Shown here: positions 1,130-64,000 of the stretch, in pieces
How the letters are laid out: each line of letters starts with the position of its first letter
Position numbering within the stretch: position 1 is the stretch's first letter
Assembly (NCBI GenBank): GCA_964569045.1
Contig: CAZMSR010000004.1
Span: 6,244-70,243, forward strand
Direction of reading: 5' to 3'
Origin: an uncultured Gammaproteobacteria bacterium
GTDB lineage: Bacteria; Patescibacteriota; Patescibacteriia; Patescibacteriales; BS150m-G62
Length of the DNA: 64,000 bases
Program-made: the position numbers and the translations under genes
Notes under the pieces: generated by a model
Database searches by the model: none
What the model saw: the letters and a program-made list of their open reading frames with translations, nothing else
Told to the model about the DNA's origin: nothing

Positions 1130-1131
1130 AT

Positions 1132-2523: not shown

Positions 2524-2530
2524 CTATTAG

Positions 2531-2570
2531 AAAAATATTTTTATCTTTAAGCGTTAATTGAGGATGGTAT
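2531..2570. repeat. solo end of the TATAC-type intergenic repeat family
   Basis: AAAAATATTTTTATCTTTAAGCGTTAATTGAGGATGGTAT is about 37/40 identical (by eye) to 5711-5750. No matching left arm was found nearby. Confidence 0.6.
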
Positions 2571-2707
2571 TGTGTTTATAATTTAAAGTCAAAGTAATAT
2601 TATCAGACGCTTTATTGTTTAGCAAACAATAAAATTTTTTGCTGTTTTGTACAACTTGGTTGTATATTGATTATGAGATACTATTGTTTAGATTATTATT
2701 AATTTTT

Positions 2708-3547: not shown

Positions 3548-3586
3548 GAATATTTTTTGATTTTTGCTTTATTCAATTAATTAATT

Positions 3587-4027
3587 ATGTACTTAATAAT
3601 AATTTTGCCAATAATTTCAGGTGTTTTTATTGCCCAAACCATTAAAATTTTGACTCGGATATTTAAGAAAGAAAAAGTGACTTGGAAACAATATTTAGCT
3701 TATTCCGGTATGCCGTCCGGGCATTCGGCTATGGTGGTGTCACTCACCACTATAATAGGTTTACGTGAGGGGGTTGATTCGGCAATTTTTGGGCTATCCT
3801 TTATTTTTGCTTTTTTAGTAATTCGGGATGCTGTTGGATTAAGACAGTATTTAGGACAGCATGGCAAGACTTTGAATATCTTGGTTAATGATTTAAAAGA
3901 TGACCATGTTCTTGAGCATCAGTACCCCCATTTATTGGAGAGAATTGGGCATACTCCATTGCAGGTTGTTATTGGCAGTTTAATAGGATTTTTAGTTAGT
4001 GTAGTTGGGTATTTAATTACTATTTAG
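3587..4027 (+). CDS. divergent PAP2-family membrane protein (acid phosphatase/vanadium haloperoxidase-related, DUF212-like)
   Basis: 146-aa membrane ORF with YSGMPSGHSAMVVSL and RDAVGLRQ motifs typical of this family. It is divergently paired with uppP. Confidence 0.7.
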   Translation: MYLIIILPIISGVFIAQTIKILTRIFKKEKVTWKQYLAYSGMPSGHSAMVVSLTTIIGLREGVDSAIFGLSFIFAFLVIRDAVGLRQYLGQHGKTLNILVNDLKDDHVLEHQYPHLLERIGHTPLQVVIGSLIGFLVSVVGYLITI

Positions 4028-4031
4028 TGAT

Positions 4032-5582: not shown

Positions 5583-5592
5583 TTTTGTTTCA

Positions 5593-5750
5593 ATACCATT
5601 TTCTGCTAACTATCAGGAAAGAATTCCTGAGTTTCAGTTGCAAAACTAACCTCGTGCTCAACATAATTTATTATGATTCGCACGCCGACTTTTTTTTCGC
5701 ACGAAATTCAAAAATATTTTTATTTTTAAGCGTTAATTCCGGATGGTATA
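5593..5750. repeat. TATAC-type intergenic repeat, uninterrupted copy
   Basis: Arms are ATACCAT (5593-5599) and ATGGTAT (5743-5749), with additional partial pairing. The interior aligns with 19598-19742 plus 19903-19926 (CAACATAAT..., GAAATT.A.AAAT.TTTTTATT, GTTAATT..GGA.GGTATA). It fills the whole gap between gpmI and its paralogue. Confidence 0.6.
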
Positions 5751-5755
5751 ATTTT

Positions 5756-7354
5756 CTATTTAATGAGTGATCTTGCGGTCATTGTAGTTGGTTTTTTTTC
5801 GTTTAGGATGTCTAGAATTGTTGGGGCTATATTTCCTAAGTATCCATTATTTTTTAGTACTAAAGAATTTTTTAGTTTTTTATTTACAATTATAAAGGGT
5901 ACTTGGTTTGTTGAATGCTTTGTGTTAATTTCGTTAGTTTCAAGATTAATCATTTCTTCGATATTACCATGATCGGCAGTTATTACAATAGTGCCTTCCA
6001 TTTGTAAGTAAGCTTTAACTATCCGTTTTAAGCACAAATCAATTATTTCGCAGCATTTAACGCCGGCCTCTATGTTGCCAGTATGACCAATCATATCCGG
6101 AGCTGCAAAGTTTAATGTAGTGAAATCATTGTGCCATATTAAATTATTTTTTCTTTTAGGAGTTAAAGTAAAAGATTTATGTCTTAAGTTATTAATGACT
6201 ATGTTTGTGAGCTTTATTGAGCTCATTTCCGGGGTTTCTTCGTAGTGTTTGATGTTTGGCGACGGAATCACTTTCCAGGTTTCGTTTGATAAGGGAGCAT
6301 TATAACCTCCATTAAAAAAATAAGTTACGTGAGCATATTTTTCTTTTTCTGCTACATAGAGCTGCCTGTAATTTTTTAAGATAATAGGTAAAGTGTCTTT
6401 TAATTCTATGCCATGAAATGCAGTTTCTATGCTATCTAAATCCGGACCAAAATCAGTCATTGTTACAAATTTTAAGTTTTTTAATACTTTTTTTCTCTTG
6501 AATGAATTTGGATTTTTTTTATTAAACTCTTTTTGAGTGAAACATTTAGTTAGTTGTCTTGCTCGATCTGAGCGTAAATTAAAGAATATTACTGCATCAT
6601 TATTATCTACTCTGGGCAGTAGCTTTTTTTTGTTCTTCATTACAAATGGCTCTATAAATTCATCTGTAATGCCAGCATTGTAGCTTTGAGTTATGGCCGC
6701 TTGAGGGCTATTTGCCGTATTTGCTTCTCCAAGTACAAGAGCATTATATGCTAATTTAGTATTATTCCAGTTTTTTTTTCTGTCCATCCCATAGTATCTA
6801 CCCATAATTGTAGAGATTTTTTTTTCGCCTCTTAGAGAGTCTCTTTCAATTGAGCTAATAAATTTTAAAGCTCCTCTTGGTGAAGAGTCTCTTCCATCAG
6901 AGAAAAGATGCAAGTATGTTTCTTTTACGTTTTCTTTTTCAGAAAGATTAATTAGCATTTTTAAGTGCTCTGGGCTTGAGTGAGGGCTCATTTTCCCAGA
7001 AGCAAGTCCCATGATATGTAATTTGCTTTTATTTTTTTTAACATGTTTAATAGCATTTATAAAAGCATTGTTTTTGAAAAAGAGTCCTTTTTTTATTGAG
7101 CTATCAATTCTTATTGATTCTTGTTCTACTATTCTTCCTGCTCCTATATTTATATGACCTGCTTCTGAGTTTCCATCTTGACCTTTGGGCAAACCGACAT
7201 ATTTTCCATGAGCGTAGATAGTAGTATTTGGAAAAGTTTTTAGAAGATTGTCAAAAAATGGAGTTTTTGATAATGTGATAGCATTGCCTTTTGTTGGATT
7301 TGCAACTCCCCATCCATCAAGTATTATTAGAATTAGTGGTAAAACGTTTGACAT
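5756..7354 (-). CDS. gpmI: 2,3-bisphosphoglycerate-independent phosphoglycerate mutase
   Basis: 532-aa ORF with all iPGM signatures: LIILDGWG, GNSEAGHINIGAGR, HLFSDGRDSSP, APDMIGHTGN, ITADHGNIEEM. Confidence 0.93.
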   Translation of the reverse strand: MSNVLPLILIILDGWGVANPTKGNAITLSKTPFFDNLLKTFPNTTIYAHGKYVGLPKGQDGNSEAGHINIGAGRIVEQESIRIDSSIKKGLFFKNNAFINAIKHVKKNKSKLHIMGLASGKMSPHSSPEHLKMLINLSEKENVKETYLHLFSDGRDSSPRGALKFISSIERDSLRGEKKISTIMGRYYGMDRKKNWNNTKLAYNALVLGEANTANSPQAAITQSYNAGITDEFIEPFVMKNKKKLLPRVDNNDAVIFFNLRSDRARQLTKCFTQKEFNKKNPNSFKRKKVLKNLKFVTMTDFGPDLDSIETAFHGIELKDTLPIILKNYRQLYVAEKEKYAHVTYFFNGGYNAPLSNETWKVIPSPNIKHYEETPEMSSIKLTNIVINNLRHKSFTLTPKRKNNLIWHNDFTTLNFAAPDMIGHTGNIEAGVKCCEIIDLCLKRIVKAYLQMEGTIVITADHGNIEEMINLETNEINTKHSTNQVPFIIVNKKLKNSLVLKNNGYLGNIAPTILDILNEKKPTTMTARSLIK

Positions 7355-15994: not shown

Positions 15995-17839
15995 TTAATT
16001 AATATTAATCTCCTCTCCTTCATTTAATTCACCTATGGTGCTATTAGATTCTTGAGTTTTTTTTGGCTTAATTATTGATGCATTGTTTTGTGTGACATTG
16101 GTAGCTTGTTTATTTGTAGCCCCTCCGAAACGTATTGGGTTTGATCTTAGAGCTTGATTAATCGGTGTAAGATTGTTGTTTGTTTTATTTAATGTACTTA
16201 AATTTAACTTGAAATTGCTGTTTTCTATATTTTCTTTTTTTTGATTAAATCTAGCTATTTCTTCTTGTTTTTGTTTTATTCTTAGGGTTTCTTTATTTTT
16301 TTTTAACTCTTTTTGCATTAAAAGACATTCTTTGCAATATATTGGTCTTAGTCCATCCGGTTTAAATGTAACCATAGTTGTTTTATTACAGTTTGAGCAG
16401 TTTATGATGTTAGTATCTTTTTGGATATTAGATTTGTGTGTGTCGTCTTGTGTGTTAAAGTACTGGGTTGTGCGGCTTGTTCTGTCTGGGTAAATGTATT
16501 TTTTTTCTGGACTAAATTCTTTTTTTACTTTTGTAAAAGGTGGTTGATTTTTTACTCCTTCTTCGGGTTCTTCGTGCCATTTGGCAATTTTTTCTTCAAT
16601 TATATGCCTGTGCATTGAATATTTTTCACGAGAGGCTTTAATTATTTTATCTTGAACATTGGTTTTTTGTTCTAAGGTTTTCGGGGGTAATCCTTTTGCA
16701 GAAAAGGGATCTGAAGCAACTCCATCAATCATTAGTTTGCAGTAAAATTCATATTTTGGAATATTAACTATATCTTGTTCGTCAAATGTTGGTGTGAATT
16801 CTGGAACTAAAGTTTCAGCATCCTGAGCACCAACTCTAAATACTGTAAAAGAGCCAACATTGCCGAAGACTGCGTCTCTTACTTTTTCATCTAATTGTTC
16901 AATGTATTGATGTGCCATTATTAAATTTAAGCGATATTTTCTGGCTTCCGATAATATATTAGCAAAACTTTCTGTGGCAAAATTTTGAAATTCATCAACA
17001 TATAAATAAAAATCTTGTCTTGTTGATTCAGGAATATCTACTCGACTCATGGCGGCTAATTGAATTTTGGTTATCATCATAGCACCAAGTAATTGCATGT
17101 TATCTTCTCCTATTAATCCTTTTGATAAATTCATTATTAAAATTTTCTTTTCATCCATAATTTCTCGGACGTTAATGGAAGATTTTACTTGACCTACAAT
17201 ATTTCTGATCAATGAAGCAGATAAAAATTGCCCTACTTTATTTTGAATAGGAGCAACAGCTTCTGAAGCAAATTTATCTGTATAGCTGGCAAATTCTTTT
17301 GTCCAGAAAGATTTTACTACCGGGTCTTTAATGTGTGTAATTATTTTTTTCCTAAAATCTTTGTCAGAAAGCATACGAACTACAGCGAGTAATGTTGCTT
17401 CTGGATAGTCTAATACTGCTAAAATTGCATTTCTTAGCGTGTATTCAAGTCTTGGACCCCATGAATCTGCCCATAATTTTTTAAATACCCCAAGTAGCCC
17501 TGATGCTACTAAATGTCTGAAATGAGGGTCAACATGTTCAATTACATTGAAAGCAATGGGATGATCAATATCACCTGGATTGAAATATATTACATCGTTA
17601 ATTCTGTGACTAGGTATATATTCAATGATTTTTTCTGCTAAATCTCCGTGAGGGTCTGTAACTGCAAGACCGCGACCAGCATTTATGTCATCAATAATCA
17701 TATTCTCAAGTAGTGTTGACTTGCCCATCCCTGTTTTTCCTATTAAGTACATGTGTCTTCTGCGATCATCAGCCTTGATTCCAAAGCGTCGCATTTCATT
17801 TCTGAAAGTTGTTTTACCAAATAAGGTTATTTCATTCAT
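15995..17839 (-). CDS. TraD/TraG/VirD4-like P-loop ATPase with C-terminal zinc ribbon
   Basis: 614 aa with Walker A GKTGMGKST, Walker B FYLYVDEFQNF and a RKYRLNLIMAHQ arginine-finger-like region. The C-terminus has CSNCNKTTMVTFKPDGLRPIYCKECL (CxxC-x17-CxxC) followed by a K/N/Q-rich tail. Confidence 0.75.
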   Translation of the reverse strand: MNEITLFGKTTFRNEMRRFGIKADDRRRHMYLIGKTGMGKSTLLENMIIDDINAGRGLAVTDPHGDLAEKIIEYIPSHRINDVIYFNPGDIDHPIAFNVIEHVDPHFRHLVASGLLGVFKKLWADSWGPRLEYTLRNAILAVLDYPEATLLAVVRMLSDKDFRKKIITHIKDPVVKSFWTKEFASYTDKFASEAVAPIQNKVGQFLSASLIRNIVGQVKSSINVREIMDEKKILIMNLSKGLIGEDNMQLLGAMMITKIQLAAMSRVDIPESTRQDFYLYVDEFQNFATESFANILSEARKYRLNLIMAHQYIEQLDEKVRDAVFGNVGSFTVFRVGAQDAETLVPEFTPTFDEQDIVNIPKYEFYCKLMIDGVASDPFSAKGLPPKTLEQKTNVQDKIIKASREKYSMHRHIIEEKIAKWHEEPEEGVKNQPPFTKVKKEFSPEKKYIYPDRTSRTTQYFNTQDDTHKSNIQKDTNIINCSNCNKTTMVTFKPDGLRPIYCKECLLMQKELKKNKETLRIKQKQEEIARFNQKKENIENSNFKLNLSTLNKTNNNLTPINQALRSNPIRFGGATNKQATNVTQNNASIIKPKKTQESNSTIGELNEGEEININ

Positions 17840-23654: not shown

Positions 23655-25166
23655 TTAATTGTATTTTTTTCTTCTCGAGTAATATCTTAGCATGCCAAAA
23701 CATATTACTGCAAATGTTGTTCCAAAAATGTTTACGTATCTAATAAAATGCCTTTTATTATCATTAATTTCTTTAATTGGCCTTGATGTAACACCTTTTG
23801 ATCTAATTTTTATTAAGTCTTCATCGATGCTTAAGTAATCTACGATGTTTTGGAAAAATAAAAGATTTTCTGGATTTTGTCTTAAGTATTTATCTGATAT
23901 AAAGTCTGCATCACCAATTACTATTATTTTTGCTTTAGAGGTTGTATTATCTGAGTACGCACTTTTGATTTTACCAGATAAAGAATATGCAAGTATATAT
24001 TGATTAGGTTTATTTGATGGTATGCTTAGGGAACTGGAGCGAGGATTTAAATCGAAATTTTCTTCTTGTAGCCAGGCATTTTTTGTTGTTTTTAGCAATG
24101 GACTAATTATAGTTTCTGAATCGATATTTTGTTCGATTATGTTAAGTGAGCTTGCCCATGGTAAAACAAGGCTTTCAAGTTTAGCAACTGCAGTATGGTC
24201 TTGATTAAAGCCATCTTTTGTAATTTTAGGCCATAAAGGATAGTTTAGCATGAACGAAACAAAACCTTGAGAGAAGGATGTGAGGCCAGATTGATTATCA
24301 AGAACTAAATTAGTATTAATATTTATTCCGTATTTTTGAATAAGTTCATGAAGATTATTGTTGTTTGGAAATCCTTCTAAATTATTTCCTATATTAACAC
24401 CATTAGATAAAATAATTAAAGAGTTTCCACTTACAATGAAGTTATCTAAAGATTCAAGTGTTTTTTTCGGTAAGTCTGAGTTAATATCGGATAGTATTAA
24501 AGTACTGATTTCACTAAGTATATTCTCAATGTTTTCTGAGTCAGATAGATCAATGCTTTGTATTTTGTAAAATTGAGCTAATTTTTCATTTGCAATGCGA
24601 GTTGTGTTTATAGAATCATTAATTATTCCTACTGTTGGTAATGTTTTTGAAGTAACTTTTTTTATAGCCAGCGTTAAATCATATTCAAGATTGAAAGTAC
24701 TTTCAATAACTGGAATTACTTCTGTATTTTCTCCATAATGAATTGCTATACCAATAAAACCGTTGGTTATTTGATATTTGTCTTTTTCTAGGACATTGAA
24801 TTGTAATTCAGGAATTCCAAGAAAATATAGCTCTTCTTTTATTTTTTCATCATTAGTGGGGTTAATTATTTTGTATTTTACTTTATTTGAATAATTTGCA
24901 TAGTCATCAAGTATGTCTTTTATGTCTTGTTTTAATGTAATATATTGCGAAGGTAAATTTTCACTTATATATAGTTTTATATTGATAATATCATCCAAGT
25001 TTGTTGCTGTGTTAATACTTACTTGTGAGATAGAATAATCTTTGTTTTTTGTTAGATCGATACGAAAAAAAATGCTATAGGCAAAAAAATTAATTACAGC
25101 AATAATACCTAAAGTGCTTAGAGTGAGAATAAGTACATCTATTTTGTTGGATTTTTTTTGAACCAT
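23655..25166 (-). CDS. GldG-like ABC-transporter auxiliary protein
   Basis: 503 aa with N- and C-terminal TM anchors flanking a large extracytoplasmic domain. It directly follows the ABC-2 permease gene. Confidence 0.6.
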   Translation of the reverse strand: MVQKKSNKIDVLILTLSTLGIIAVINFFAYSIFFRIDLTKNKDYSISQVSINTATNLDDIINIKLYISENLPSQYITLKQDIKDILDDYANYSNKVKYKIINPTNDEKIKEELYFLGIPELQFNVLEKDKYQITNGFIGIAIHYGENTEVIPVIESTFNLEYDLTLAIKKVTSKTLPTVGIINDSINTTRIANEKLAQFYKIQSIDLSDSENIENILSEISTLILSDINSDLPKKTLESLDNFIVSGNSLIILSNGVNIGNNLEGFPNNNNLHELIQKYGININTNLVLDNQSGLTSFSQGFVSFMLNYPLWPKITKDGFNQDHTAVAKLESLVLPWASSLNIIEQNIDSETIISPLLKTTKNAWLQEENFDLNPRSSSLSIPSNKPNQYILAYSLSGKIKSAYSDNTTSKAKIIVIGDADFISDKYLRQNPENLLFFQNIVDYLSIDEDLIKIRSKGVTSRPIKEINDNKRHFIRYVNIFGTTFAVICFGMLRYYSRRKKYN

Positions 25167-53855: not shown

Positions 53856-56553
53856 TGCTAGCTTGATTTATTTTTAATGTTTTTTTACTAATAAATTTAA
53901 TTTTTATTATTTCTATCATTATTATTGTTGATACAGCTACTAGTAAAATTACAATCCAACTGTTTAATGATAGTGGCACTGTGTGTAGTGCTTTTTGTAG
54001 TGGTGGCCAATATATGGATATAATTAATAACCAAAAACTTATTAAAACAGCAAGTATTAACATTTTATTATCTAGTATATTTGTTTTCCATATTGGTTCA
54101 CGAAGATTTCTTAAGCTAAAAATATAGAAAAGTGAATCTACACCTATCATAGCAAATATTAGAGTTCTTATATAGTCTATGTTGTAATCGTTGTGATGGA
54201 GGTAGTAAAAGATGCTAAAAATAAAGATATCACGTATTATTCCGGCAGCAAAGATTATTATTTTCATCTCTTTTGATAGGATCGGTTCATTTTTGGACAA
54301 AGGTGCATCATTCATGATTCCTTTTTCAGCTTTTTCAAAGGCTAAAGAAAAGTCTGGTAATCCATCATTAACAATATTAATCCATAGAATTTGAGCTGGT
54401 AATAACGCTAGTGGCATGCCGCATATGATTGACCCTACAATTAATATTACTTCAGAAAAACTATCGGATACTAAATATGTGATAACCTTTCTGATATTGG
54501 CAAAAATTACTCTACCTTGTTTTACTGCAGCAACAATTGTTTTAAAGTTTGAATCAAGGAGTATGATGTCAGATGCTTCTTTGGCTATGTCTGTGCCCTC
54601 ACCAACTGCAATGCCTATGTCTGCAGCTTTTAAGGCTGGTGAATCATTTACGCCATCTCCTGTCATGGCAACAACTTCACCTTTTGATTGCAATGCTTTA
54701 ACAATCCTTAGTTTGTGGTGAGGATTAACTCTTGCATAAAGATTGACTTTATTTACAATCTTTTTAAGAGATGTGTCGGATATTCTATTTAATTGCGTTC
54801 CTGTTAGAATGTTACTTTCTTTTACTGTTAAACCTATTTCCTTGGCTATTGCTTGAGCTGTTAGTTTATGATCCCCGGTAATAACTACAGGCCTTATTCC
54901 CGCTTCTGAGCAAATTTTAATAGTATCACGTGCTTCTTTTCTAAGTGGATCTTTAAGTGCTATAAATCCAATAAAAGTTAAATTATTATCATAATCATTC
55001 CAGTTAATAAAATTTGGGTCAATTTTTTTTCTGCTTTTGAAATTTTTAGTTGCTACACCTATTACTCTTAAACCTCTTTTAGTTAGTTTTTTGTAAGTGT
55101 TGTTTAGTTTGATTTTATCAATTTTTGTGAGTTTTTTCTTTTTATTATTTTCAAAATAAAAATTTGATTTGTTAAGAAGTTTTTCTGCAGCACCTTTTTG
55201 ATATAAGCTGTAGGCATTGTCTTTTTTGTGAAGAGTTATCATGAACTTATTTGCGCTGTCAAAAGGTAGTATTGCTATTTTTGGTTCATTTTTTAACAAT
55301 ATTGTTTTGTTTATACTTGCTTGACTAGCGGCTGACAATAAGGCAGCTTCAGTTGGGTCGCCTATTATTTTCCATTTTGTTAATGGTTCATGTGGATTTT
55401 CTATTATAGCTTCGTTGCATATTGCTCCAATTTTTAGTGCTAATTGAATTGTTTTGGAGTTTTTTAAAGTTGTTGGTTGCTGAGTTGTACTATGACCAAT
55501 GATTATTTCTGAGACGTGCATTTTCCCTTCGGTTAATGTTCCTGTTTTATCTGTGCAAATTACTGTTGTTGATCCTAAGGTTTCAGCAGCAACTAATTTT
55601 CTGGTTAAGGCCTTTCTTTTTAATAATTGCTGCATTCCTAGGGCTAAAATAACTGTTACACCAACAATCAAGCCCTCAGGAATAGAAGCAACTGCAATAG
55701 AAACTCCCATTAGAAACATTTCAAGAGTATCTCTGCCTTGTGCAATGCCAATAATCGCTACAATTACTGAAATTATTCCTATTAGAATGCCTATAAATTG
55801 TGAGAATTTTGTTAGCCTTTTTTGTAGTGGTGTTGTTTCTTTCTGAGTTGTGCTTACTAATTCTGCTATTTTTCCTATTTCAGTATTTGTTCCAATTTCG
55901 CAAATAATTGCCTTAGCACTACCTTTAACACAAATTGTTCCAGCATAAATCATGTTTAATCTGTCCGCTAAGCTTGTGCCACTTGGAAGTGATTTTATAT
56001 TTTTTTCAACAGCTATGGACTCACCGGTGAGTGATGATTCATTAATTTTTAGATTAGTCGCTTCAATTAAACGTGCGTCAGCAGGAATTTTATTTCCAGA
56101 TTTTATTACTATAATATCGCCAATGGTAAGTTCATTTGCGTTTACTTGAATTTCATTGCCATTGCGAATTACATAAGCATTGTGCAATACTAATTCGCGC
56201 AATTTTTGAAGTGCTTGGCTAGCTTTGTTTTCTTGAATATATCCTATAATTGTGTTTATTATTACGGCACCAAAAATAACCATTGCGTCAACCGGTTCAT
56301 TTAAGATTATGGATATAATTCCGGCAAATAAGAGAATGTATATTAGTGGGGATTTAAATTGAGTTAAAAAAATTATCAGTTTTCTGACTGGTTTTTCGCG
56401 AGGTAGCTCGTTTGGTCCATATTTGTTTAACCTAGAAACGTATTCTTTTTTTGTAAGACCGGATAGTCTTGTTTTTAATTTTTTTAAAAGTATGTTTGGT
56501 TGTGTTGAGTGGTATTCTATTTTCATAATAAAATTATAGCATGTTTTGTTCAT
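53845..56553 (-). CDS. cation-transporting P-type ATPase (type II, Ca2+/Mg2+-like)
   Basis: 902 aa with LTGESIAVEK, IPEGL, ICTDKTGTLTEGKM and MTGDGVNDSPALKAADIGIAVG motifs. An alternative start Met lies at 56526. Confidence 0.92.
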   Translation of the reverse strand: MNKTCYNFIMKIEYHSTQPNILLKKLKTRLSGLTKKEYVSRLNKYGPNELPREKPVRKLIIFLTQFKSPLIYILLFAGIISIILNEPVDAMVIFGAVIINTIIGYIQENKASQALQKLRELVLHNAYVIRNGNEIQVNANELTIGDIIVIKSGNKIPADARLIEATNLKINESSLTGESIAVEKNIKSLPSGTSLADRLNMIYAGTICVKGSAKAIICEIGTNTEIGKIAELVSTTQKETTPLQKRLTKFSQFIGILIGIISVIVAIIGIAQGRDTLEMFLMGVSIAVASIPEGLIVGVTVILALGMQQLLKRKALTRKLVAAETLGSTTVICTDKTGTLTEGKMHVSEIIIGHSTTQQPTTLKNSKTIQLALKIGAICNEAIIENPHEPLTKWKIIGDPTEAALLSAASQASINKTILLKNEPKIAILPFDSANKFMITLHKKDNAYSLYQKGAAEKLLNKSNFYFENNKKKKLTKIDKIKLNNTYKKLTKRGLRVIGVATKNFKSRKKIDPNFINWNDYDNNLTFIGFIALKDPLRKEARDTIKICSEAGIRPVVITGDHKLTAQAIAKEIGLTVKESNILTGTQLNRISDTSLKKIVNKVNLYARVNPHHKLRIVKALQSKGEVVAMTGDGVNDSPALKAADIGIAVGEGTDIAKEASDIILLDSNFKTIVAAVKQGRVIFANIRKVITYLVSDSFSEVILIVGSIICGMPLALLPAQILWINIVNDGLPDFSLAFEKAEKGIMNDAPLSKNEPILSKEMKIIIFAAGIIRDIFIFSIFYYLHHNDYNIDYIRTLIFAMIGVDSLFYIFSLRNLREPIWKTNILDNKMLILAVLISFWLLIISIYWPPLQKALHTVPLSLNSWIVILLVAVSTIIMIEIIKIKFISKKTLKINQASNAL

Positions 56554-56563
56554 GTGTGAGATA

Positions 56564-56572
56564 TGGTATAAT
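56564..56572 (+). promoter_or_regulatory. extended -10 promoter for surface-protein gene copy 1
   Basis: TGGTATAAT is a perfect TGnTATAAT, 65 nt upstream of the ATG. A GAAGG Shine-Dalgarno sequence lies at 56623-56627. Confidence 0.5.
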
Positions 56573-56629
56573 TCTTAATAAGTTGTTAATTGAGTTAATG
56601 TTAGCTTGTTTTATATGTAATTATGAAGG

Positions 56630-59600
56630 TTGAACAATGCCTAAAAAAGCTATTAATCTAGTCAAACATCATTACAGTAATTTAACTAATAGCCATAAGC
56701 ATTTACCATGGTTGTTGGTTTTATTTATTTTTGTGAATATCTTTGCTATGTCAATGGGTTTTTTTATGTCTAAAAAAACACCATTTATACATCCTTATGC
56801 TGGAGTTGTATTGGCAAGTGGTGGTACCGCGCCTACTTTAGCGCTTGATTCAAATATAAAATTATTGGTTCATTCTGATACATCTAACGGTTCCCAGGTT
56901 TTTATTGATAGTTCTTCGTATAGTCATACTGTTGATTATTTTGATGCTATTGCTCATGAAACTGTTGTCGGTGGAGGACCAACGCCAGTATTCGGAGGTA
57001 GTTCTATTCAGTGTGTTCGTGATGGACGTTTAGAGGTTGTTGATAAAACTAATATTCAGTGGGGTGAACAGCCGTTAGTTATTGAGTCTTGGGTGAGATT
57101 TAATGATGTTGGTAATTGGGATAATTTTTTTGGTGATGGTGGTTCTGATAATGGTGGGATTTGGATTACTTTTGGTCCACCAACTGGAGCTAGATTAGAA
57201 GTTTTTCAAGGCTCATCTCGCGTTGTAGATCTCAATACTGGTGCTGATTGGAGTGGTTGGTTAGCAGATACGTGGTATCATTTTGCAGTTGTTTATGATT
57301 TAAATGGTTGGGGGATATTTAGAGATGGTGTAAGACTAAGTTATACGGCTAATACTGCGTATCCAGGTCCATCAACCACCCCACTCACTTTTGGACATTA
57401 TTTTGATGGTCATATTGATGAAGCTAGTGTATCTATTGGTACTGACAAAGGATGGATTAATGGCTTTACTCCCCCGGCATCTCCTTATTCTGCGTCTCCT
57501 ACAATATCCGGCACAGAAGAAACCGGTGCTACTTTAACCGGAAATTATACATACCAAGACGCTGAAAGTGATCCTGAAGGAACTTCATTATTTCGTTGGT
57601 TAAGTTCAGATACACTAGACGGCACTTATACTCCAATTAGTGGAGCAACTAGCCAAACTTATGTGGTTGACCAAGCATATCTTGGAAAATATCTTAAATT
57701 TGAAGTTACTCCGGTTTCTACCATATCCCCAATTACAGGTAATGCATATTTAAGTGCAGCAACCGGTGCAATAGCGCAAGGAGAGGTGTCACCAACTGCA
57801 ACTAGTTTAAGCATTAGCGGGACCACAGCAATAGGTGAAACTTTAACCGGTAATTATACTTATTCAGATTTAAATGGAGATACAGAGAGTGGATCAGAAT
57901 ATCAATGGTATCGCGCTGCTACAGCTGAAGGTGCATATTCAGCAATTGGCGGAGCAATTTCGCAAACTTATGATTTAGTAATGGCTGATTATCAAAAGTA
58001 CCTTAAATTTGAAGTTACTCCTGTAGCCGATACTGCCCCTACAACAGGAAATTCAGCTACATCTAGTGCTAGTGCGCAGGTTATTGGGACAATGCCAATA
58101 TTAATGCAAAATGGAATTGATTCAAATACAAAATTATTACTACATAATGATGGAAATGGAACAGCCTTTGTAGACGATTCTAATAATGGACATTCTATTG
58201 CTGCTCAAGGTAGTGCTACCCAAAGTGCTACCCAAAGTAAATTTGGTGGGAAAAGTATTTATTTTGATGGTGGGGCTAATGGAGTATCAATCCCGGCTAG
58301 TACTGATTTTGCTTTTGGCACTAATGATTTTACTATTGATTTTTGGATGTATTTTAGTCAAGTTAGAGAAAATCAATATTTTTATGATATTGGCTCAAAT
58401 CAAGAGCAATTTAGACTTTATCAAGGTTATTGGGATTTATACAATTCATCAGGTGGTCAAATTTTTCATATTGCAAATACTCCTAGTGCTGCTTCATGGC
58501 ATCATATTGCCTTGGTTCGCAGTGGTAATACTTTTGAGTTATTTTTAGATGGAACATCTTTAGGTTCAAGTACATATACTGGTACATATGGTAGTAGTGC
58601 CAATACTTTTATGATTGGAAATTATGGCGGAGTAATAGCAGGCGTTGCCTTAGATGGCTATGTAGATGAATTTAGAATTTCTAAAGGAGTTGCGCGCTGG
58701 ACTGAAAATTTTACTTTGCCAACACAAATGTATACAGAACAAGTTTATCTAACAGGAACACAAGAAGTCGGCCAAACTTTAACTGGAAATTACACATTTT
58801 ATGATGCAGAATCTGATTCTGAAGGAGTATCTTTATATCAATGGTATCGAGCAGATGGTGCCGAAGGTGCGTATTCTGTTATTAGCGGGGCAACAAATAT
58901 AACTTATGCTTTAACTTCTAGTGATGCAGCTAAATTTATTAAATTTGAAGTAACACCTGTTTCAACTATAGCCCCAACTATAGGTATAACAGCAACGTCT
59001 AGTGCTACAATCGAGGTTGGTGCTCCGCCAACTGCAACTAGTCTAAGTATTATCGGCACAACAACAGTTGGTGAAACCTTAACCGGAAATTATACATATT
59101 TTGATGCTAATTCTGATTCTGAGGCCACTTCACTTTACCAATGGTATCGAGCTGATACAGCTGAAGGTACATATGCTGCTATTAGCGGAGCAACTTCACA
59201 AGCTTATGTTGCTACTTCTACTGATTTAAATAAATACCTTAAATTTGAAGTTACTCCTGTGGCTGATACTGCCCCAACTATTGGTGAGGTAGCTACAAGT
59301 ACGTCAGTTGGTCCTATAATTGAAGTCGCAGTAGCTCCTGTGGCAACTAATGTAAGTATTAATGGGAACGCTGTAGTTGGTCAGAGTTTATCTGGTGCTT
59401 ATACCTATTCTGATGAAAATAATGATGCTGAAAATTTATCAACATTTAGATGGTTAAGGTCTGATGCTGTTGATGGTAGTTATGTTGCGATATCCGGAGC
59501 TACAAGTTTAAGTTATACTTTAGTAAGTGCTGATGAAAGTAAATACATAAAATTTGAAGTAATACCTAAAGCGGTTAATGCCCCAACTAATGGAGATGTT

Positions 59601-59651
59601 GTGCTTAGTACTGCGTCAGATCAAATTGTATCAACCCCTGTGTCTAATTTA
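56630..59651 (+). repeat. tandem duplication, copy 1 (period 4349 bp)
   Basis: Identical to 60979-64000 at every position I compared except 56642 T vs 60991 C. The ORF track gives identical alternate-frame peptides at 58186 and 62535. Confidence 0.9.
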
Positions 59652-60860
59652 GTTCCTCAAACTACTGGAGTTAGTGTTAGTGGTTCAAAATTAATTGGAT
59701 CAGTGTTAACCGGTGGATACATATACTCTGATTATGAGAATGATATTGAAGGAAGCTCTATTTTTAGATGGCTAAAAGCAGATACTGAGGATGGTGTTTT
59801 TGTGGCAATCGGCAGTGCTACTGCCGGCACTTATACTTTGGTTGGTGGTGATGTTAATAAATATTTAAAATTTGAAGTTACTCCTGTGGCAAGCACCGGT
59901 TCAACAACAGGCGAAACGATTCTATCAGATGCTTATGGTCAGATTTATGATCCGGTTACGGTAAAACAGGATTTTACTGCTAGTGCCTCAACTACAATTG
60001 CTATAGCTGATACAAGTTCGCCGGGTACAGCCCAATTGCCAACAGACACTATTGTTATTGAATTAAAAGATGATCAAAAATTAGAATTTAATGATGCTGT
60101 TGAGGCAGATGTAAGTGCAACTAGCACAACAGTATCTACACCATCGGGAGATGTTTCAATTCAAGATGCTATAGCTGATGTTATGGGAACTGCATTTACA
60201 GACACAGAAGTAGATAGTGTTCAATTAGAGTCGGGTATACAAGGAGAGCCAATTGTGATTGCTCAAGGAGGTTTGCAAGTAGAAATTCCTGATGAAACAG
60301 AAATATTTGCTCCAGCTAGTTGGGATGGTACTATTGCTCCACCTGTTATTGTTGAATCAGCTCAAATTCCCGGGCAATCAACCGGTTCTGTTATTTCTAT
60401 GGGGGCTTCCGGTATATCACTTATATTTACAAAGCCTGCTAAAATAGTTATCCCTTCTTCTACCGGTAATCCATTTTATACTGTTAATGGAACTGATTGG
60501 ACAGAGATTACAAATCAATGTAATACAGCTGAAGGTGGTGGCTATAGCTTTCCTGATGAATGTTATTTTAAGACAGGTGATCAAACAATTGTATGGACAT
60601 ATCATTTTACGCAATTTGGAATGGGGTCGACGAATTTAAATTTACATCTGTTTAGTAACTATTTTGGAGGAGTTGCTACTACAACTGTTTTTGGTGGTGA
60701 CCCTGAAGGTGATGGTGACTCTCCATTGAAAATAAGGAAAGAAGGTGTAACCTATAGAATACCAGTTGTGGCTACATCTAGTCCTTATGCATCAAATTGG
60801 AGAATATTAATAGATGGTGTTGTTAGAGCTATTAAAATGTTTGGATGGAGGGTTGATTAA
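56637..60860 (+). CDS. giant N-terminally anchored surface protein: two LamG-like domains, six ~95-aa beta-repeats and a unique C-terminal domain
   Basis: 1407-aa ORF. A TM helix spans aa 23-44. The LamG/concanavalin-like blocks are FGGSSIQCVRDG...WYHFAVVYD...FDGHIDEASVS and FGGKSIYFDGG...DFTIDFWMYF...WHHIALVRSGNTFELFLDG...DGYVDEFRISKG. There are six repeats of G.TLTGNYTY.D...E..S.[FY][RQ]W[LY]R......Y..I.GAT...Y.......KY[LI]KFEVTPV. Confidence 0.9.
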   Translation: MPKKAINLVKHHYSNLTNSHKHLPWLLVLFIFVNIFAMSMGFFMSKKTPFIHPYAGVVLASGGTAPTLALDSNIKLLVHSDTSNGSQVFIDSSSYSHTVDYFDAIAHETVVGGGPTPVFGGSSIQCVRDGRLEVVDKTNIQWGEQPLVIESWVRFNDVGNWDNFFGDGGSDNGGIWITFGPPTGARLEVFQGSSRVVDLNTGADWSGWLADTWYHFAVVYDLNGWGIFRDGVRLSYTANTAYPGPSTTPLTFGHYFDGHIDEASVSIGTDKGWINGFTPPASPYSASPTISGTEETGATLTGNYTYQDAESDPEGTSLFRWLSSDTLDGTYTPISGATSQTYVVDQAYLGKYLKFEVTPVSTISPITGNAYLSAATGAIAQGEVSPTATSLSISGTTAIGETLTGNYTYSDLNGDTESGSEYQWYRAATAEGAYSAIGGAISQTYDLVMADYQKYLKFEVTPVADTAPTTGNSATSSASAQVIGTMPILMQNGIDSNTKLLLHNDGNGTAFVDDSNNGHSIAAQGSATQSATQSKFGGKSIYFDGGANGVSIPASTDFAFGTNDFTIDFWMYFSQVRENQYFYDIGSNQEQFRLYQGYWDLYNSSGGQIFHIANTPSAASWHHIALVRSGNTFELFLDGTSLGSSTYTGTYGSSANTFMIGNYGGVIAGVALDGYVDEFRISKGVARWTENFTLPTQMYTEQVYLTGTQEVGQTLTGNYTFYDAESDSEGVSLYQWYRADGAEGAYSVISGATNITYALTSSDAAKFIKFEVTPVSTIAPTIGITATSSATIEVGAPPTATSLSIIGTTTVGETLTGNYTYFDANSDSEATSLYQWYRADTAEGTYAAISGATSQAYVATSTDLNKYLKFEVTPVADTAPTIGEVATSTSVGPIIEVAVAPVATNVSINGNAVVGQSLSGAYTYSDENNDAENLSTFRWLRSDAVDGSYVAISGATSLSYTLVSADESKYIKFEVIPKAVNAPTNGDVVLSTASDQIVSTPVSNLVPQTTGVSVSGSKLIGSVLTGGYIYSDYENDIEGSSIFRWLKADTEDGVFVAIGSATAGTYTLVGGDVNKYLKFEVTPVASTGSTTGETILSDAYGQIYDPVTVKQDFTASASTTIAIADTSSPGTAQLPTDTIVIELKDDQKLEFNDAVEADVSATSTTVSTPSGDVSIQDAIADVMGTAFTDTEVDSVQLESGIQGEPIVIAQGGLQVEIPDETEIFAPASWDGTIAPPVIVESAQIPGQSTGSVISMGASGISLIFTKPAKIVIPSSTGNPFYTVNGTDWTEITNQCNTAEGGGYSFPDECYFKTGDQTIVWTYHFTQFGMGSTNLNLHLFSNYFGGVATTTVFGGDPEGDGDSPLKIRKEGVTYRIPVVATSSPYASNWRILIDGVVRAIKMFGWRVD

Positions 60861-60940
60861 GGGTTGTGTTAAGTATTGGTTATGAATAAAATAAAGCTTT
60901 ATTAATAAAATTGGACTTTATAGTTTGAATGCTATGGTTG

Positions 60941-60949
60941 TGTTATAAT
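60941..60949 (+). promoter_or_regulatory. extended -10 promoter for surface-protein gene copy 2
   Basis: TGTTATAAT lies 37 nt upstream of the copy-2 ATG, in unique (non-duplicated) spacer sequence. No clear Shine-Dalgarno sequence follows. Confidence 0.45.
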
Positions 60950-60978
60950 TGTTAATAATATTTGTTTCTTGTTGTTTA

Positions 60979-63900
60979 TTGAACAATGCCCAAAAAAGCT
61001 ATTAATCTAGTCAAACATCATTACAGTAATTTAACTAATAGCCATAAGCATTTACCATGGTTGTTGGTTTTATTTATTTTTGTGAATATCTTTGCTATGT
61101 CAATGGGTTTTTTTATGTCTAAAAAAACACCATTTATACATCCTTATGCTGGAGTTGTATTGGCAAGTGGTGGTACCGCGCCTACTTTAGCGCTTGATTC
61201 AAATATAAAATTATTGGTTCATTCTGATACATCTAACGGTTCCCAGGTTTTTATTGATAGTTCTTCGTATAGTCATACTGTTGATTATTTTGATGCTATT
61301 GCTCATGAAACTGTTGTCGGTGGAGGACCAACGCCAGTATTCGGAGGTAGTTCTATTCAGTGTGTTCGTGATGGACGTTTAGAGGTTGTTGATAAAACTA
61401 ATATTCAGTGGGGTGAACAGCCGTTAGTTATTGAGTCTTGGGTGAGATTTAATGATGTTGGTAATTGGGATAATTTTTTTGGTGATGGTGGTTCTGATAA
61501 TGGTGGGATTTGGATTACTTTTGGTCCACCAACTGGAGCTAGATTAGAAGTTTTTCAAGGCTCATCTCGCGTTGTAGATCTCAATACTGGTGCTGATTGG
61601 AGTGGTTGGTTAGCAGATACGTGGTATCATTTTGCAGTTGTTTATGATTTAAATGGTTGGGGGATATTTAGAGATGGTGTAAGACTAAGTTATACGGCTA
61701 ATACTGCGTATCCAGGTCCATCAACCACCCCACTCACTTTTGGACATTATTTTGATGGTCATATTGATGAAGCTAGTGTATCTATTGGTACTGACAAAGG
61801 ATGGATTAATGGCTTTACTCCCCCGGCATCTCCTTATTCTGCGTCTCCTACAATATCCGGCACAGAAGAAACCGGTGCTACTTTAACCGGAAATTATACA
61901 TACCAAGACGCTGAAAGTGATCCTGAAGGAACTTCATTATTTCGTTGGTTAAGTTCAGATACACTAGACGGCACTTATACTCCAATTAGTGGAGCAACTA
62001 GCCAAACTTATGTGGTTGACCAAGCATATCTTGGAAAATATCTTAAATTTGAAGTTACTCCGGTTTCTACCATATCCCCAATTACAGGTAATGCATATTT
62101 AAGTGCAGCAACCGGTGCAATAGCGCAAGGAGAGGTGTCACCAACTGCAACTAGTTTAAGCATTAGCGGGACCACAGCAATAGGTGAAACTTTAACCGGT
62201 AATTATACTTATTCAGATTTAAATGGAGATACAGAGAGTGGATCAGAATATCAATGGTATCGCGCTGCTACAGCTGAAGGTGCATATTCAGCAATTGGCG
62301 GAGCAATTTCGCAAACTTATGATTTAGTAATGGCTGATTATCAAAAGTACCTTAAATTTGAAGTTACTCCTGTAGCCGATACTGCCCCTACAACAGGAAA
62401 TTCAGCTACATCTAGTGCTAGTGCGCAGGTTATTGGGACAATGCCAATATTAATGCAAAATGGAATTGATTCAAATACAAAATTATTACTACATAATGAT
62501 GGAAATGGAACAGCCTTTGTAGACGATTCTAATAATGGACATTCTATTGCTGCTCAAGGTAGTGCTACCCAAAGTGCTACCCAAAGTAAATTTGGTGGGA
62601 AAAGTATTTATTTTGATGGTGGGGCTAATGGAGTATCAATCCCGGCTAGTACTGATTTTGCTTTTGGCACTAATGATTTTACTATTGATTTTTGGATGTA
62701 TTTTAGTCAAGTTAGAGAAAATCAATATTTTTATGATATTGGCTCAAATCAAGAGCAATTTAGACTTTATCAAGGTTATTGGGATTTATACAATTCATCA
62801 GGTGGTCAAATTTTTCATATTGCAAATACTCCTAGTGCTGCTTCATGGCATCATATTGCCTTGGTTCGCAGTGGTAATACTTTTGAGTTATTTTTAGATG
62901 GAACATCTTTAGGTTCAAGTACATATACTGGTACATATGGTAGTAGTGCCAATACTTTTATGATTGGAAATTATGGCGGAGTAATAGCAGGCGTTGCCTT
63001 AGATGGCTATGTAGATGAATTTAGAATTTCTAAAGGAGTTGCGCGCTGGACTGAAAATTTTACTTTGCCAACACAAATGTATACAGAACAAGTTTATCTA
63101 ACAGGAACACAAGAAGTCGGCCAAACTTTAACTGGAAATTACACATTTTATGATGCAGAATCTGATTCTGAAGGAGTATCTTTATATCAATGGTATCGAG
63201 CAGATGGTGCCGAAGGTGCGTATTCTGTTATTAGCGGGGCAACAAATATAACTTATGCTTTAACTTCTAGTGATGCAGCTAAATTTATTAAATTTGAAGT
63301 AACACCTGTTTCAACTATAGCCCCAACTATAGGTATAACAGCAACGTCTAGTGCTACAATCGAGGTTGGTGCTCCGCCAACTGCAACTAGTCTAAGTATT
63401 ATCGGCACAACAACAGTTGGTGAAACCTTAACCGGAAATTATACATATTTTGATGCTAATTCTGATTCTGAGGCCACTTCACTTTACCAATGGTATCGAG
63501 CTGATACAGCTGAAGGTACATATGCTGCTATTAGCGGAGCAACTTCACAAGCTTATGTTGCTACTTCTACTGATTTAAATAAATACCTTAAATTTGAAGT
63601 TACTCCTGTGGCTGATACTGCCCCAACTATTGGTGAGGTAGCTACAAGTACGTCAGTTGGTCCTATAATTGAAGTCGCAGTAGCTCCTGTGGCAACTAAT
63701 GTAAGTATTAATGGGAACGCTGTAGTTGGTCAGAGTTTATCTGGTGCTTATACCTATTCTGATGAAAATAATGATGCTGAAAATTTATCAACATTTAGAT
63801 GGTTAAGGTCTGATGCTGTTGATGGTAGTTATGTTGCGATATCCGGAGCTACAAGTTTAAGTTATACTTTAGTAAGTGCTGATGAAAGTAAATACATAAA

Positions 63901-64000
63901 ATTTGAAGTAATACCTAAAGCGGTTAATGCCCCAACTAATGGAGATGTTGTGCTTAGTACTGCGTCAGATCAAATTGTATCAACCCCTGTGTCTAATTTA
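60979..64000 (+). repeat. tandem duplication, copy 2 (continues past the window end)
   Basis: See 56630-59651. Identity starts 7 nt upstream of the ATG. Confidence 0.9.
60986..64000 (+). CDS. second copy of the giant LamG/beta-repeat surface protein (first 1005 codons; open at the window end)
   Basis: Absent from the ORF track because no stop falls in the window. Translation is identical to aa 1-1005 of 56637..60860; the only nucleotide difference seen is the synonymous CCT/CCC at codon 2. Confidence 0.88.
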   Translation, partial: MPKKAINLVKHHYSNLTNSHKHLPWLLVLFIFVNIFAMSMGFFMSKKTPFIHPYAGVVLASGGTAPTLALDSNIKLLVHSDTSNGSQVFIDSSSYSHTVDYFDAIAHETVVGGGPTPVFGGSSIQCVRDGRLEVVDKTNIQWGEQPLVIESWVRFNDVGNWDNFFGDGGSDNGGIWITFGPPTGARLEVFQGSSRVVDLNTGADWSGWLADTWYHFAVVYDLNGWGIFRDGVRLSYTANTAYPGPSTTPLTFGHYFDGHIDEASVSIGTDKGWINGFTPPASPYSASPTISGTEETGATLTGNYTYQDAESDPEGTSLFRWLSSDTLDGTYTPISGATSQTYVVDQAYLGKYLKFEVTPVSTISPITGNAYLSAATGAIAQGEVSPTATSLSISGTTAIGETLTGNYTYSDLNGDTESGSEYQWYRAATAEGAYSAIGGAISQTYDLVMADYQKYLKFEVTPVADTAPTTGNSATSSASAQVIGTMPILMQNGIDSNTKLLLHNDGNGTAFVDDSNNGHSIAAQGSATQSATQSKFGGKSIYFDGGANGVSIPASTDFAFGTNDFTIDFWMYFSQVRENQYFYDIGSNQEQFRLYQGYWDLYNSSGGQIFHIANTPSAASWHHIALVRSGNTFELFLDGTSLGSSTYTGTYGSSANTFMIGNYGGVIAGVALDGYVDEFRISKGVARWTENFTLPTQMYTEQVYLTGTQEVGQTLTGNYTFYDAESDSEGVSLYQWYRADGAEGAYSVISGATNITYALTSSDAAKFIKFEVTPVSTIAPTIGITATSSATIEVGAPPTATSLSIIGTTTVGETLTGNYTYFDANSDSEATSLYQWYRADTAEGTYAAISGATSQAYVATSTDLNKYLKFEVTPVADTAPTIGEVATSTSVGPIIEVAVAPVATNVSINGNAVVGQSLSGAYTYSDENNDAENLSTFRWLRSDAVDGSYVAISGATSLSYTLVSADESKYIKFEVIPKAVNAPTNGDVVLSTASDQIVSTPVSNL

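Follow-up and report, generated by a model that had tools for sequence, protein, structure and literature searches.

Bacteria of the Candidate Phyla Radiation (CPR, or Patescibacteria) generally live as episymbionts, and to our knowledge the way in which they attach to and recognise their hosts is largely unknown beyond type IV pili. A very large gene, here called g1, raises the question of whether its product could serve such a role. It lies in a 64,000-nucleotide stretch of contig CAZMSR010000004.1 (assembly GCA_964569045.1), and this whole stretch is referred to below as the window. The original prediction, made from the DNA sequence, had read g1 as a membrane-anchored host-cell or glycan adhesin of an episymbiotic CPR bacterium, with two LamG-like domains set among six copies of an unassigned repeat. 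We found that g1 is followed by a tandem paralogue, g2, which had been overlooked, and that the two genes probably encode a modular cell-surface protein of Patescibacteria of the fibrillar-adhesin-like kind. The adhesin function, the binding of a host or glycan, and the localisation and topology of the g1 protein are read here from sequence, and as such the locus offers a concrete, well-delimited candidate for CPR host attachment or recognition. The architecture itself is ordinary and is made of known modules, LamG and A9; of more interest are the mosaic of the two paralogues and an unmodelled C-terminal domain family, here called domain X.

The CPR origin was upheld by the GroEL encoded in the window, which is 78-80% identical to GroELs of Candidatus Falkowbacteria, Parcubacteria and Patescibacteria; the G+C content of the window is about 29-30%. 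The g1 protein begins with a hydrophobic anchor, followed by a LamG domain, two A9 repeats, a second LamG domain, four A9 repeats and a C-terminal region (Table 1), and this layout agreed to within a few codons with the one predicted originally. The identical protein was found on 5 contigs of public assemblies. The predicted transmembrane anchor was also recovered, as a hydrophobic stretch of 23 residues (aa 24-46) preceded by a Lys/His-rich N-region; this is long for a cleavable signal peptide and suggests an uncleaved anchor. The protein is rich in Thr, Ser, Gly and Ala and nearly free of Cys (3 Cys in 1407 residues). In the arrangement that we propose, the uncleaved N-terminal segment would hold the protein in the membrane, the two LamG (concanavalin-A-like) domains would, from what is known of their family, be the likely ligand- or glycan-binding units, and the six A9 immunoglobulin (Ig)-like domains would act as spacers or as a stalk. 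Domain X and its tail would end the chain, and the paralogues would carry old, selectively maintained and differing versions of this core and tail.

Table 1 Features of the g1/g2 locus (positions are those of the window; aa, amino acids of g1; dS and dN, synonymous and nonsynonymous divergence)
Feature	Position	Strand	Basis
Extended -10-like element TGGTATAAT, upstream of g1	56564-56572	+	Pattern match and sequence; consensus match only
Gene g1, modular surface protein, 1407 aa	56637-60860	+	Open reading frame (ORF); stop TAA at 60858-60860
N-terminal hydrophobic segment, aa 24-46, PWLLVLFIFVNIFAMSMGFFMSK, read as signal anchor	56706-56774	+	Sequence
LamG domain 1, aa 70-286 (Pfam core aa 141-265)	56844-57494	+	PF13385 Laminin_G_3, E=1.8e-9, 38.4 bits; extent from local hidden Markov model (HMM)
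A9 Ig-like repeats R1, R2 (aa 286-388, 389-491)	57492-57800, 57801-58109	+	PF23197, 31.5 and 37.7 bits, each scanned alone
LamG domain 2, aa 493-701	58113-58739	+	PF13385, E=5e-18, 66.1 bits
A9 Ig-like repeats R3-R6 (aa 701-800, 801-903, 904-1009, 1010-1112)	58737-59036, 59037-59345, 59346-59663, 59664-59972	+	PF23197, 36.7, 46.9, 35.0 and 41.2 bits, each scanned alone
Domain X, aa 1108-1333, beta-rich, extracellular, ZU5-like predicted fold	59958-60635	+	645 relatives; model; fold match
Anciently diverged segment of g1/g2, aa 1227-1407, including the 83-aa tail after HFT (60609-60857)	60315-60857	+	dS 1.29, dN 0.22, dN/dS 0.17
Conserved Cys pair C1295...C1309 of domain X	60519-60563	+	Each Cys in 152/157 aligned copies; disulfide inferred
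H1323-F1324-T1325 within WTYHFTQFG, putative autoproteolytic site F/T	60603-60611	+	Conservation; position in model; analogy (PMC3210808, PMC3321182)
Extended -10-like element TGTTATAAT, in the 125-nt g1-g2 spacer	60941-60949	+	Pattern match and sequence; consensus match only
Gene g2, tandem paralogue, 1409 aa in full (P0001), runs past the window end	60986-64000	+	Translation

To define the repeats, we delimited the units by anchoring on the motifs G..LTG.Y.Y.D and K[YF][IL]KFEV.P. All six predicted repeats were recovered, at aa 286-491 and 701-1112, with about 100 aa each, a pairwise protein identity of 38-63% and 22 invariant columns, and a direct-repeat family of 62-72% identity was detected across them at the DNA level. 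The longer pattern that all six were said to keep held as a consensus only, and as a strict regular expression it matched R5 alone. The recurrent 20-mer AAATTTGAAGTTACTCCTGT was present with up to two mismatches in five of the six repeats of g1 but not in R5; the window contained 9 such matches against 0.04 expected, and 4 of the 9 were in g2. The repeats had been left without a family, and here every copy assigned itself to Pfam PF23197 (IG_AIR9, the A9 domain of AIR9), since each exceeded the gathering cut-off when scanned singly (31.5-46.9 vs 27.5 bits). The whole g1 protein matched PF23197 in six stretches (E=2.5e-53, 178.3 bits), and the related family PF16709 SCAB-Ig was matched too. The NCBIfam model NF040485 ZirU_fam was also matched, with 154.7 bits against a cut-off of 100, a score which is summed over 6 stretches and does not mean orthology.

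The beta-sandwich suggested for the repeats was borne out by an AlphaFold2 model of R4, which was built on 66 diverse A9 sequences. The model was all-beta with a predicted local distance difference test score (pLDDT) of 94.2, and its best fold matches in the PDB were the Ig domain of SCAB1 (8y47 and 4dix; E ~1.5e-4, template modelling (TM) score 0.67, 25-26% identity), followed by Fn3/Ig domains. PDB sequence searches with the whole protein and with the repeat profile gave no significant match, SCAB1 being marginal (E=0.83). An acidic loop, Y-x-[YF]-x-D-x-x-x-D-x-E-x-x-S, precedes the invariant Trp and is kept in all six repeats (aa 15-36 of the unit; 57534-57599 in R1), and the confidence of the R4 model dips there (block 21-30, pLDDT 85). 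This loop may bind Ca2+ and so rigidify the stalk.

A9 domains are Ig-like interaction domains that were named in the plant and trypanosomatid protein AIR9, in which a basic Ser-rich microtubule-binding N-terminus and leucine-rich repeats (LRR) lie ahead of the A9 array (PMC3488599). The likeness of g1 to AIR9 and SCAB1 consists in the match of every repeat to PF23197 and in the Ig-like sandwich nearest to that of SCAB1. However, AIR9 and SCAB1 are eukaryotic proteins of the cytoplasm that associate with the cytoskeleton and carry LRR or PH partners, whereas the A9 domains of g1 are bacterial, predicted to be extracellular and interleaved with LamG; g1 has no LRR by Pfam, and its N-terminus is a transmembrane segment followed by LamG. 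The name AIR9 stands for a non-adhesive protein, yet the bacterial members of PF23197 are surface proteins, so the family name is no argument against a role at the surface or in adhesion. In most of the 120 best homologues listed, PF23197 was accompanied by SLH (PF00395), the sorting domain of the type IX secretion system (T9SS, PF18962), FG-GAP/VCBS or PG_binding domains; Calx-beta was a further partner, and 365 A9 copies could be extracted from 87 of the 120. Judged by these architectures, A9 is a module from which bacteria commonly build cell-surface proteins, although its name comes from a cytoskeletal protein of eukaryotes. The assignment removes a false "unknown" and ties CPR giant proteins to surface proteins that are anchored by SLH or sorted by T9SS.

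Among the bacterial relatives flagged, only ZirS and ZirU of Salmonella have been studied by experiment. They are extracellular proteins of the Ig superfamily, and their export runs by way of ZirT, an inverse autotransporter (PMC4943183). With its 210 positions the ZirU model spans about two Ig domains, and it matches the g1 repeats. ZirU itself is small, with two domains, and is secreted as the substrate of an outer-membrane transporter of Gram-negative bacteria, whereas g1 has 1407 aa with a transmembrane segment, LamG and domain X, and no inverse autotransporter (IAT_beta barrel) is encoded near g1/g2.

The company that A9 keeps also raises another reading, in which g1 would be a structural protein of the envelope and its A9/LamG array part of an outer proteinaceous layer of the S-layer type. 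Many of the strongest A9 homologues among the 120 are SLH proteins of Firmicutes (Cohnella, Cellulosilyticum, Saccharibacillus and others), the composition of g1 is that of typical surface-layer proteins, and two tandem copies would suit a product of high abundance. We nevertheless consider this very unlikely, as g1 has neither SLH nor another known lattice or anchoring domain by Pfam and carries an N-terminal transmembrane anchor instead, and its modules form a linear string as in fibrillar proteins.

For the two remaining modules, each LamG block alone scored above the gathering cut-off of PF13385 Laminin_G_3 (27.6 bits), and the three motifs by which they had been recognised, DFTIDFWMYF, WHHIALVRSGNTFELFLDG and DGYVDEFRISKG, are present in the translation, in LamG domain 2; the assignment therefore stands. 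In the species-representative genome collection, the nearest relative of g1 was a protein of a Candidatus Peribacteria metagenome-assembled genome (MAG), with 38% identity over aa 63-1115. Its ORF (L007; CAYFJZ010000004.1, 5312-16328) runs off the end of the contig after more than 3672 aa and contains about ten LamG-A9(-A9) units. From this comparison, the LamG-A9-A9 interleaving is a duplicating super-repeat of CPR giant proteins. The combination of LamG with A9 was seen in this Peribacteria protein and in a few non-CPR proteins, e.g., P0010 and P0012, and the other relatives in CPR/DPANN MAGs, giant ORFs with multiple LamG domains, resembled g1 in the LamG part only.

A part in host recognition has been proposed for surface proteins of DPANN that are rich in LamG (PMC10266531). 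The g1 protein is like these DPANN/CPR proteins in that several ConA-like/LamG domains sit on secreted or membrane-bound proteins of ultrasmall symbionts, but most of those relatives have LamG only instead of LamG and A9, and the function is a predicted one in all of them. Compared with the fibrillar-adhesin-like proteins (PMC8286594), g1 has a long multidomain chain that is predicted to be extracellular, candidate binding domains and a stalk of repeated domains (here the six tandem or interleaved Ig-like A9 domains). The N-terminal hydrophobic segment of 23 residues would be its putative surface anchor, and homologues carry SLH, T9SS, dockerin or PG-binding modules. The adhesive region of fibrillar adhesins is usually terminal (PMC8286594), whereas in g1 the candidate LamG domains are interleaved in the stalk and the terminus is domain X with its tail. 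Two further points weigh against an adhesin. Laminin_G_3 is a broad superfamily model that covers lectins as well as glucanases, so a match does not imply glycan binding, and neither LamG nor A9 is mentioned in the main texts of the two fibrillar-adhesin surveys.

The tandem copy g2 starts 125 nt past g1, and the same order with identical sequences was found in three ENA assemblies from different samples. Positions 60979-64000 equal 56630-59651 with 1 mismatch in 3022 nt; this sole mismatch, at position 56642, is a synonymous CCT/CCC difference, and the repeated unit starts 7 nt upstream of the ATG. Comparison of the complete genes gave one synonymous change (dS 0.001) over codons 1-1226 (3678 nt). 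Divergence sets in at aa 1227, just inside the domain X core, and is maximal in the tail: codons 1227-1330 had a dS of 1.52 and a dN of 0.115 (ratio 0.08), and codons 1331-1407 had a dS of 1.06 and a dN of 0.40 (ratio 0.38). The WTYHFTQFGMG motif is identical between the two genes, and their downstream flanks bear no relation to each other. We read the pattern, with both 3' ends old and kept by selection and a homogenised 5' stretch of 3.68 kb, as the imprint of gene conversion along a tract that ends sharply. Gene conversion would thus hold one scaffold identical while two functional C-terminal variants persist, and, to judge by the mosaic, it is in the C-terminal ~180 residues that the two proteins would differ in function.

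The similarity among the repeats had been thought to allow in-frame changes of repeat number. This expectation found little support, as the longest exact nucleotide matches among the A9 repeats were 11-26 nt, against 3.68 kb between g1 and g2, which makes the A9 repeats a poor substrate for rearrangement. The repeat number was equal across four assemblies, which represent one strain population. On the sequences compared, the actual recombination substrate is the near-identical 3.68-kb stretch common to g1 and g2, not the A9 repeats. A contig from the Joint Genome Institute (JGI) has bearing here (L006; JGI 3300007510, Ga0105013_1032120, 1-5658). In the ENA assemblies g1 and g2 lie between a P-type ATPase gene and, after g2, a convergent WecG-glycosyltransferase/NUDIX fusion gene; on the JGI contig a single gene, with the 5' end of g1 (CCT at position 6) and the 3' end of g2, has the ATPase and WecG/NUDIX genes as its immediate neighbours. 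Either this is a collapsed assembly or it is a real recombinational deletion between the paralogues.

The same contig speaks for a different reading, in which the two-gene mosaic would be in part an artefact of assembly, with two diverged paralogues whose moderately different 5' parts were merged to one consensus, or with a single gene that has two 3' alleles in the population. Short reads cannot span a perfect repeat of 3.68 kb, and the 5' identity may have been inflated by short-read assemblers that merge similar copies; the single remaining 5' difference lies only 13 nt from the repeat boundary, and both points count against gene conversion. On the other hand, a unique 118-nt spacer joins the 3' end of g1 to the start of the repeat unit with identical sequence in three separate assemblies, a junction that a single-copy locus with two alleles would not yield. 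The unrelated downstream flanks and the recording of the exact proteins of both genes from several sources also argue against an artefact, which we therefore regard as improbable.

The C-terminal region of ~300 aa had been described as unique. It indeed gave no match in Pfam, in NCBIfam or among PDB sequences, with the domain X profile included in the PDB search, and a word-indexed protein search with the C-terminal 304 aa (59946-60857) returned nothing, missing even its own cluster. An exhaustive HMMER search, however, found at least 645 relatives (clusters at 50% identity) at E<=1e-3, 180 of them at E<=1e-10, so the region belongs to a widespread family and the orphan C-terminus was a false negative of the word-indexed search. 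The case warns against reliance on indexed searching for beta-rich domains with low-complexity flanks. The conserved unit, domain X, has about 220 aa and occurs mostly late in very large proteins, sometimes in two copies, together with A9, Calx-beta, BspA-type LRR, Fib_succ_major, esterase (BD-FAE), GLUG and PG_binding_1 modules. It is a very common and strongly conserved extracellular domain that has neither a Pfam nor an NCBIfam model.

What follows domain X differs within the family. A median of 187 residues come after it, and among the tails there were a dockerin (E=9.5e-12), a PG-binding domain and unrecognised repeats; C-terminal hydrophobic helices were present in the tails of 29/147 domain X proteins. 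The architectures suggest that domain X is typically placed between a working ectodomain and an attachment module. The short tail of g1, which ends in FGW, recurred in two relatives only, P0251 and P0252. Neither A9 nor domain X was found by local HMMs in any further copy in the rest of the window.

Two side observations were made in this family. Five relatives (P0257, P0258, P0286, P0290 and P0328) have Trp at 4-6 of 7 conserved Gly columns; these are probably genes with UGA=Gly (code 25) that the source database had translated by a UGA=Trp table, which would point to CPR lineages of the Gracilibacteria or Absconditabacteria type. The C-terminal model also matched two proteins of uncultured Caudovirales in BFVD (A0A6J5QZX9 and A0A8S5NPH6; 63-66 columns, 27-32% identity, Foldseek probabilities 1.00 and 0.85), and part of domain X may thus be present in phage proteins.

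The partners of domain X bear on a further reading, in which g1 would be an exoprotein that binds or degrades polymers for nutrient scavenging, with LamG as carbohydrate-binding or glucanase-type modules and A9 as linkers. The model PF13385 is that of the superfamily of concanavalin A-like lectins/glucanases, relatives of domain X carry esterase (BD-FAE), Fib_succ_major, GLUG and dockerin modules, and bacterial surface proteins with ZU5 domains have been linked to the breakdown or remodelling of polymers outside the cell (Zhang et al. 2012, PMC3482391). But no catalytic domain was found in g1/g2 by Pfam or NCBIfam, CPR bacteria with their reduced genomes are thought to depend on a host, and LamG surface proteins have been proposed for host recognition in the analogous DPANN symbionts (PMC10266531), so that scavenging appears unlikely. 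A cell-surface protein of the fibrillar-adhesin-like kind remains our preferred reading.

The most conserved feature of domain X suggests what the domain itself may do. Over 167 aligned copies this was a motif at the C-terminal end, T-[YF]-H-[FL]-[TS]-x-[FYW]-[GA], with T in 156/157 copies, H in 154/156, F in 136 and L in 14 of 156, and T in 148 and S in 8 of 156. A conserved Cys pair plus a Trp precede the HFT motif, and this pair accounts for 2 of the 3 Cys of g1. In the AlphaFold2 model of the C-terminus (304 residues), pLDDT was >90 over residues 10-230, and the HFT sits at the break between the strands E213-221 and E223-229; the model continues with a disordered linker and then a beta tail of moderate confidence. 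The top matches of this model in a Foldseek search of the PDB were ZU5 proteins, namely ankyrin-G ZU5-ZU5-UPA (6m3p; E=2.1e-3, probability 1.0), UNC5b (3g5b), ankyrin-B (4d8o) and ankyrin-R (3ud2).

There are precedents for self-cleavage at such a site. The ZU5/FIIND domains of PIDD, CARD8 and NLRP1 and the protein Nup98 cleave themselves at HF/S or SF/S (the slash marks the cut) at the C-terminal end of the domain, where the Phe is buried and Ser, Thr or Cys serves as the nucleophile, and the fragments do not come apart afterwards (PMC3210808). In GPS/GAIN the cut is made at H-L/T, on a kinked turn that disulfides brace (PMC3321182). Zhang et al. (2012) united the ZU5, GPS and Nup98 autopeptidases in one superfamily and reported ZU5 in large bacterial surface proteins bearing adhesion modules (PMC3482391); a later paper on ZU5 domains of bacterial surface proteins was not found in the literature searched. 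Domain X has the scissile-type motif by which autopeptidases of the ZU5 superfamily are recognised, a conserved [H/S]-hydrophobic-[S/T/C] at the C-terminal end before a beta-strand, and its motif resembles HF/S of PIDD/Nup98 and SF/S of CARD8 (PMC3210808) as well as HL/T of the latrophilin GAIN domain (PMC3321182). It is beta-rich, with ZU5 domains as its best solved fold matches, and its near-invariant His-hydrophobic-Ser/Thr motif at a strand break is like that of the ZU5/FIIND, Nup98 and GPS-GAIN domains. Its predicted extracellular place beside attachment modules in homologues is like that of GPS beside the membrane. Unlike GPS with its two disulfides, domain X has one Cys pair, and it has no helical GAIN subdomain A.

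Because of the motif, its position, the weak fold match and these precedents, we propose that domain X may cleave itself at the F1324-T1325 bond through an N-to-O acyl shift, in the manner of ZU5/FIIND, Nup98 and GPS/GAIN, and that the last 83 residues would then remain attached non-covalently. By analogy, such autoproteolysis at F1324/T1325 is a serious possibility that falls a little short of being probable. Several results weigh against it. The ZU5 match is weak globally, with no PDB hit at E<=1e-3 and query-normalised TM scores of 0.25-0.30 for a multi-part model of 304 residues, and the domain X profile gave no link to a PDB chain. The Pfam models ZU5, GPS, FIIND and Nucleoporin2 were not matched at E<=1 by g1 nor at E<=10 by 28 members of the family. 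The ZU5 domains of ankyrin and UNC5b do not cleave, so the fold alone is no proof of cleavage. Finally, the N-terminal anchor would put domain X at the distal tip of g1, whereas in most homologues the domain lies beside a C-terminal attachment module.

The wider proposal is a tentative one. Domain X could be the founding example of a large family of extracellular bacterial autoproteolytic domains, distantly related to ZU5/GPS/Nup98, with a disulfide-braced, near-invariant H-F/T site, set between the ectodomain and the attachment module in many surface proteins of CPR and other bacteria and present here in two tandem versions on a gene-converted scaffold. If this is true, domain X would be the prokaryotic equivalent of the GAIN/SEA mechanism by which adhesion receptors of animals release a fragment under shear or keep it tethered, and its confirmation would extend ZU5/GPS-type autoprocessing to a great number of surface proteins in bacteria.

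A putative releasing autopeptidase directly ahead of a variable tail also recalls polymorphic toxins. In such a reading, g1 and g2 would be contact-dependent effectors whose filamentous N-terminal part delivers a variable C-terminal payload freed by the ZU5-like autopeptidase, the two genes carrying alternative payloads. It would agree with the identity of the 1226 N-terminal codons and the divergence of the C-termini in tandem copies, and ZU5 is recognised as a processing peptidase of polymorphic toxins (PMC3482391). Polymorphic toxin systems, however, have unrelated alternative C-terminal toxins and an adjacent immunity gene (PMC3482391), whereas the tails here are just 83-85 aa, are homologues of one another and evolve under purifying selection (dN/dS 0.38), and no small immunity-type ORF follows either gene: g2 itself starts 125 nt past g1, and the convergent WecG/NUDIX gene lies past g2. 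No toxin family was detected, including in a Pfam scan of eight domain X tails, which found one dockerin only. Moreover, the ZU5 of polymorphic toxins is typically N-terminal and accompanied by RHS repeats (Zhang et al. 2012), which are absent from g1. We therefore consider a toxin extremely unlikely, and retain a surface protein with two maintained C-terminal variants as the preferred reading.

Around the two genes, extended -10-like elements lie upstream of g1 and in the spacer before g2 (Table 1), but a generic promoter/terminator scan showed no enrichment over shuffled sequences and no terminator in the g1-g2 interval. The G+C content of window positions 56000-64000, which hold g1 and g2, was 36-37%, against about 25-32% for most of the window; a protein composition rich in Gly, Ala, Thr and Ser, or else a foreign origin, may account for the difference. 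Another giant gene, encoding 1864 aa and without a Pfam match on record, lies ~1.4 kb downstream of g2, past the WecG/NUDIX gene (L003 15676-21270), and local HMMs found no A9, LamG or domain X in its product. Elsewhere in the window, on the minus strand, two adjacent paralogues of cofactor-independent phosphoglycerate mutase are encoded at 4032-5582 and 5756-7354; one scored 543 bits, and the other is diverged, with 228 bits against an equivalog cut-off of 330 bits. A component of a GldG-like ABC transporter, the substrate-binding one, is encoded at 23655-25166 (minus strand), with a score below the cut-off. A 614-aa protein encoded at 15995-17839, also on the minus strand, has weak TraD/TrbC coupling-protein-like matches in its N-terminal part and a CxxC-x17-CxxC domain.

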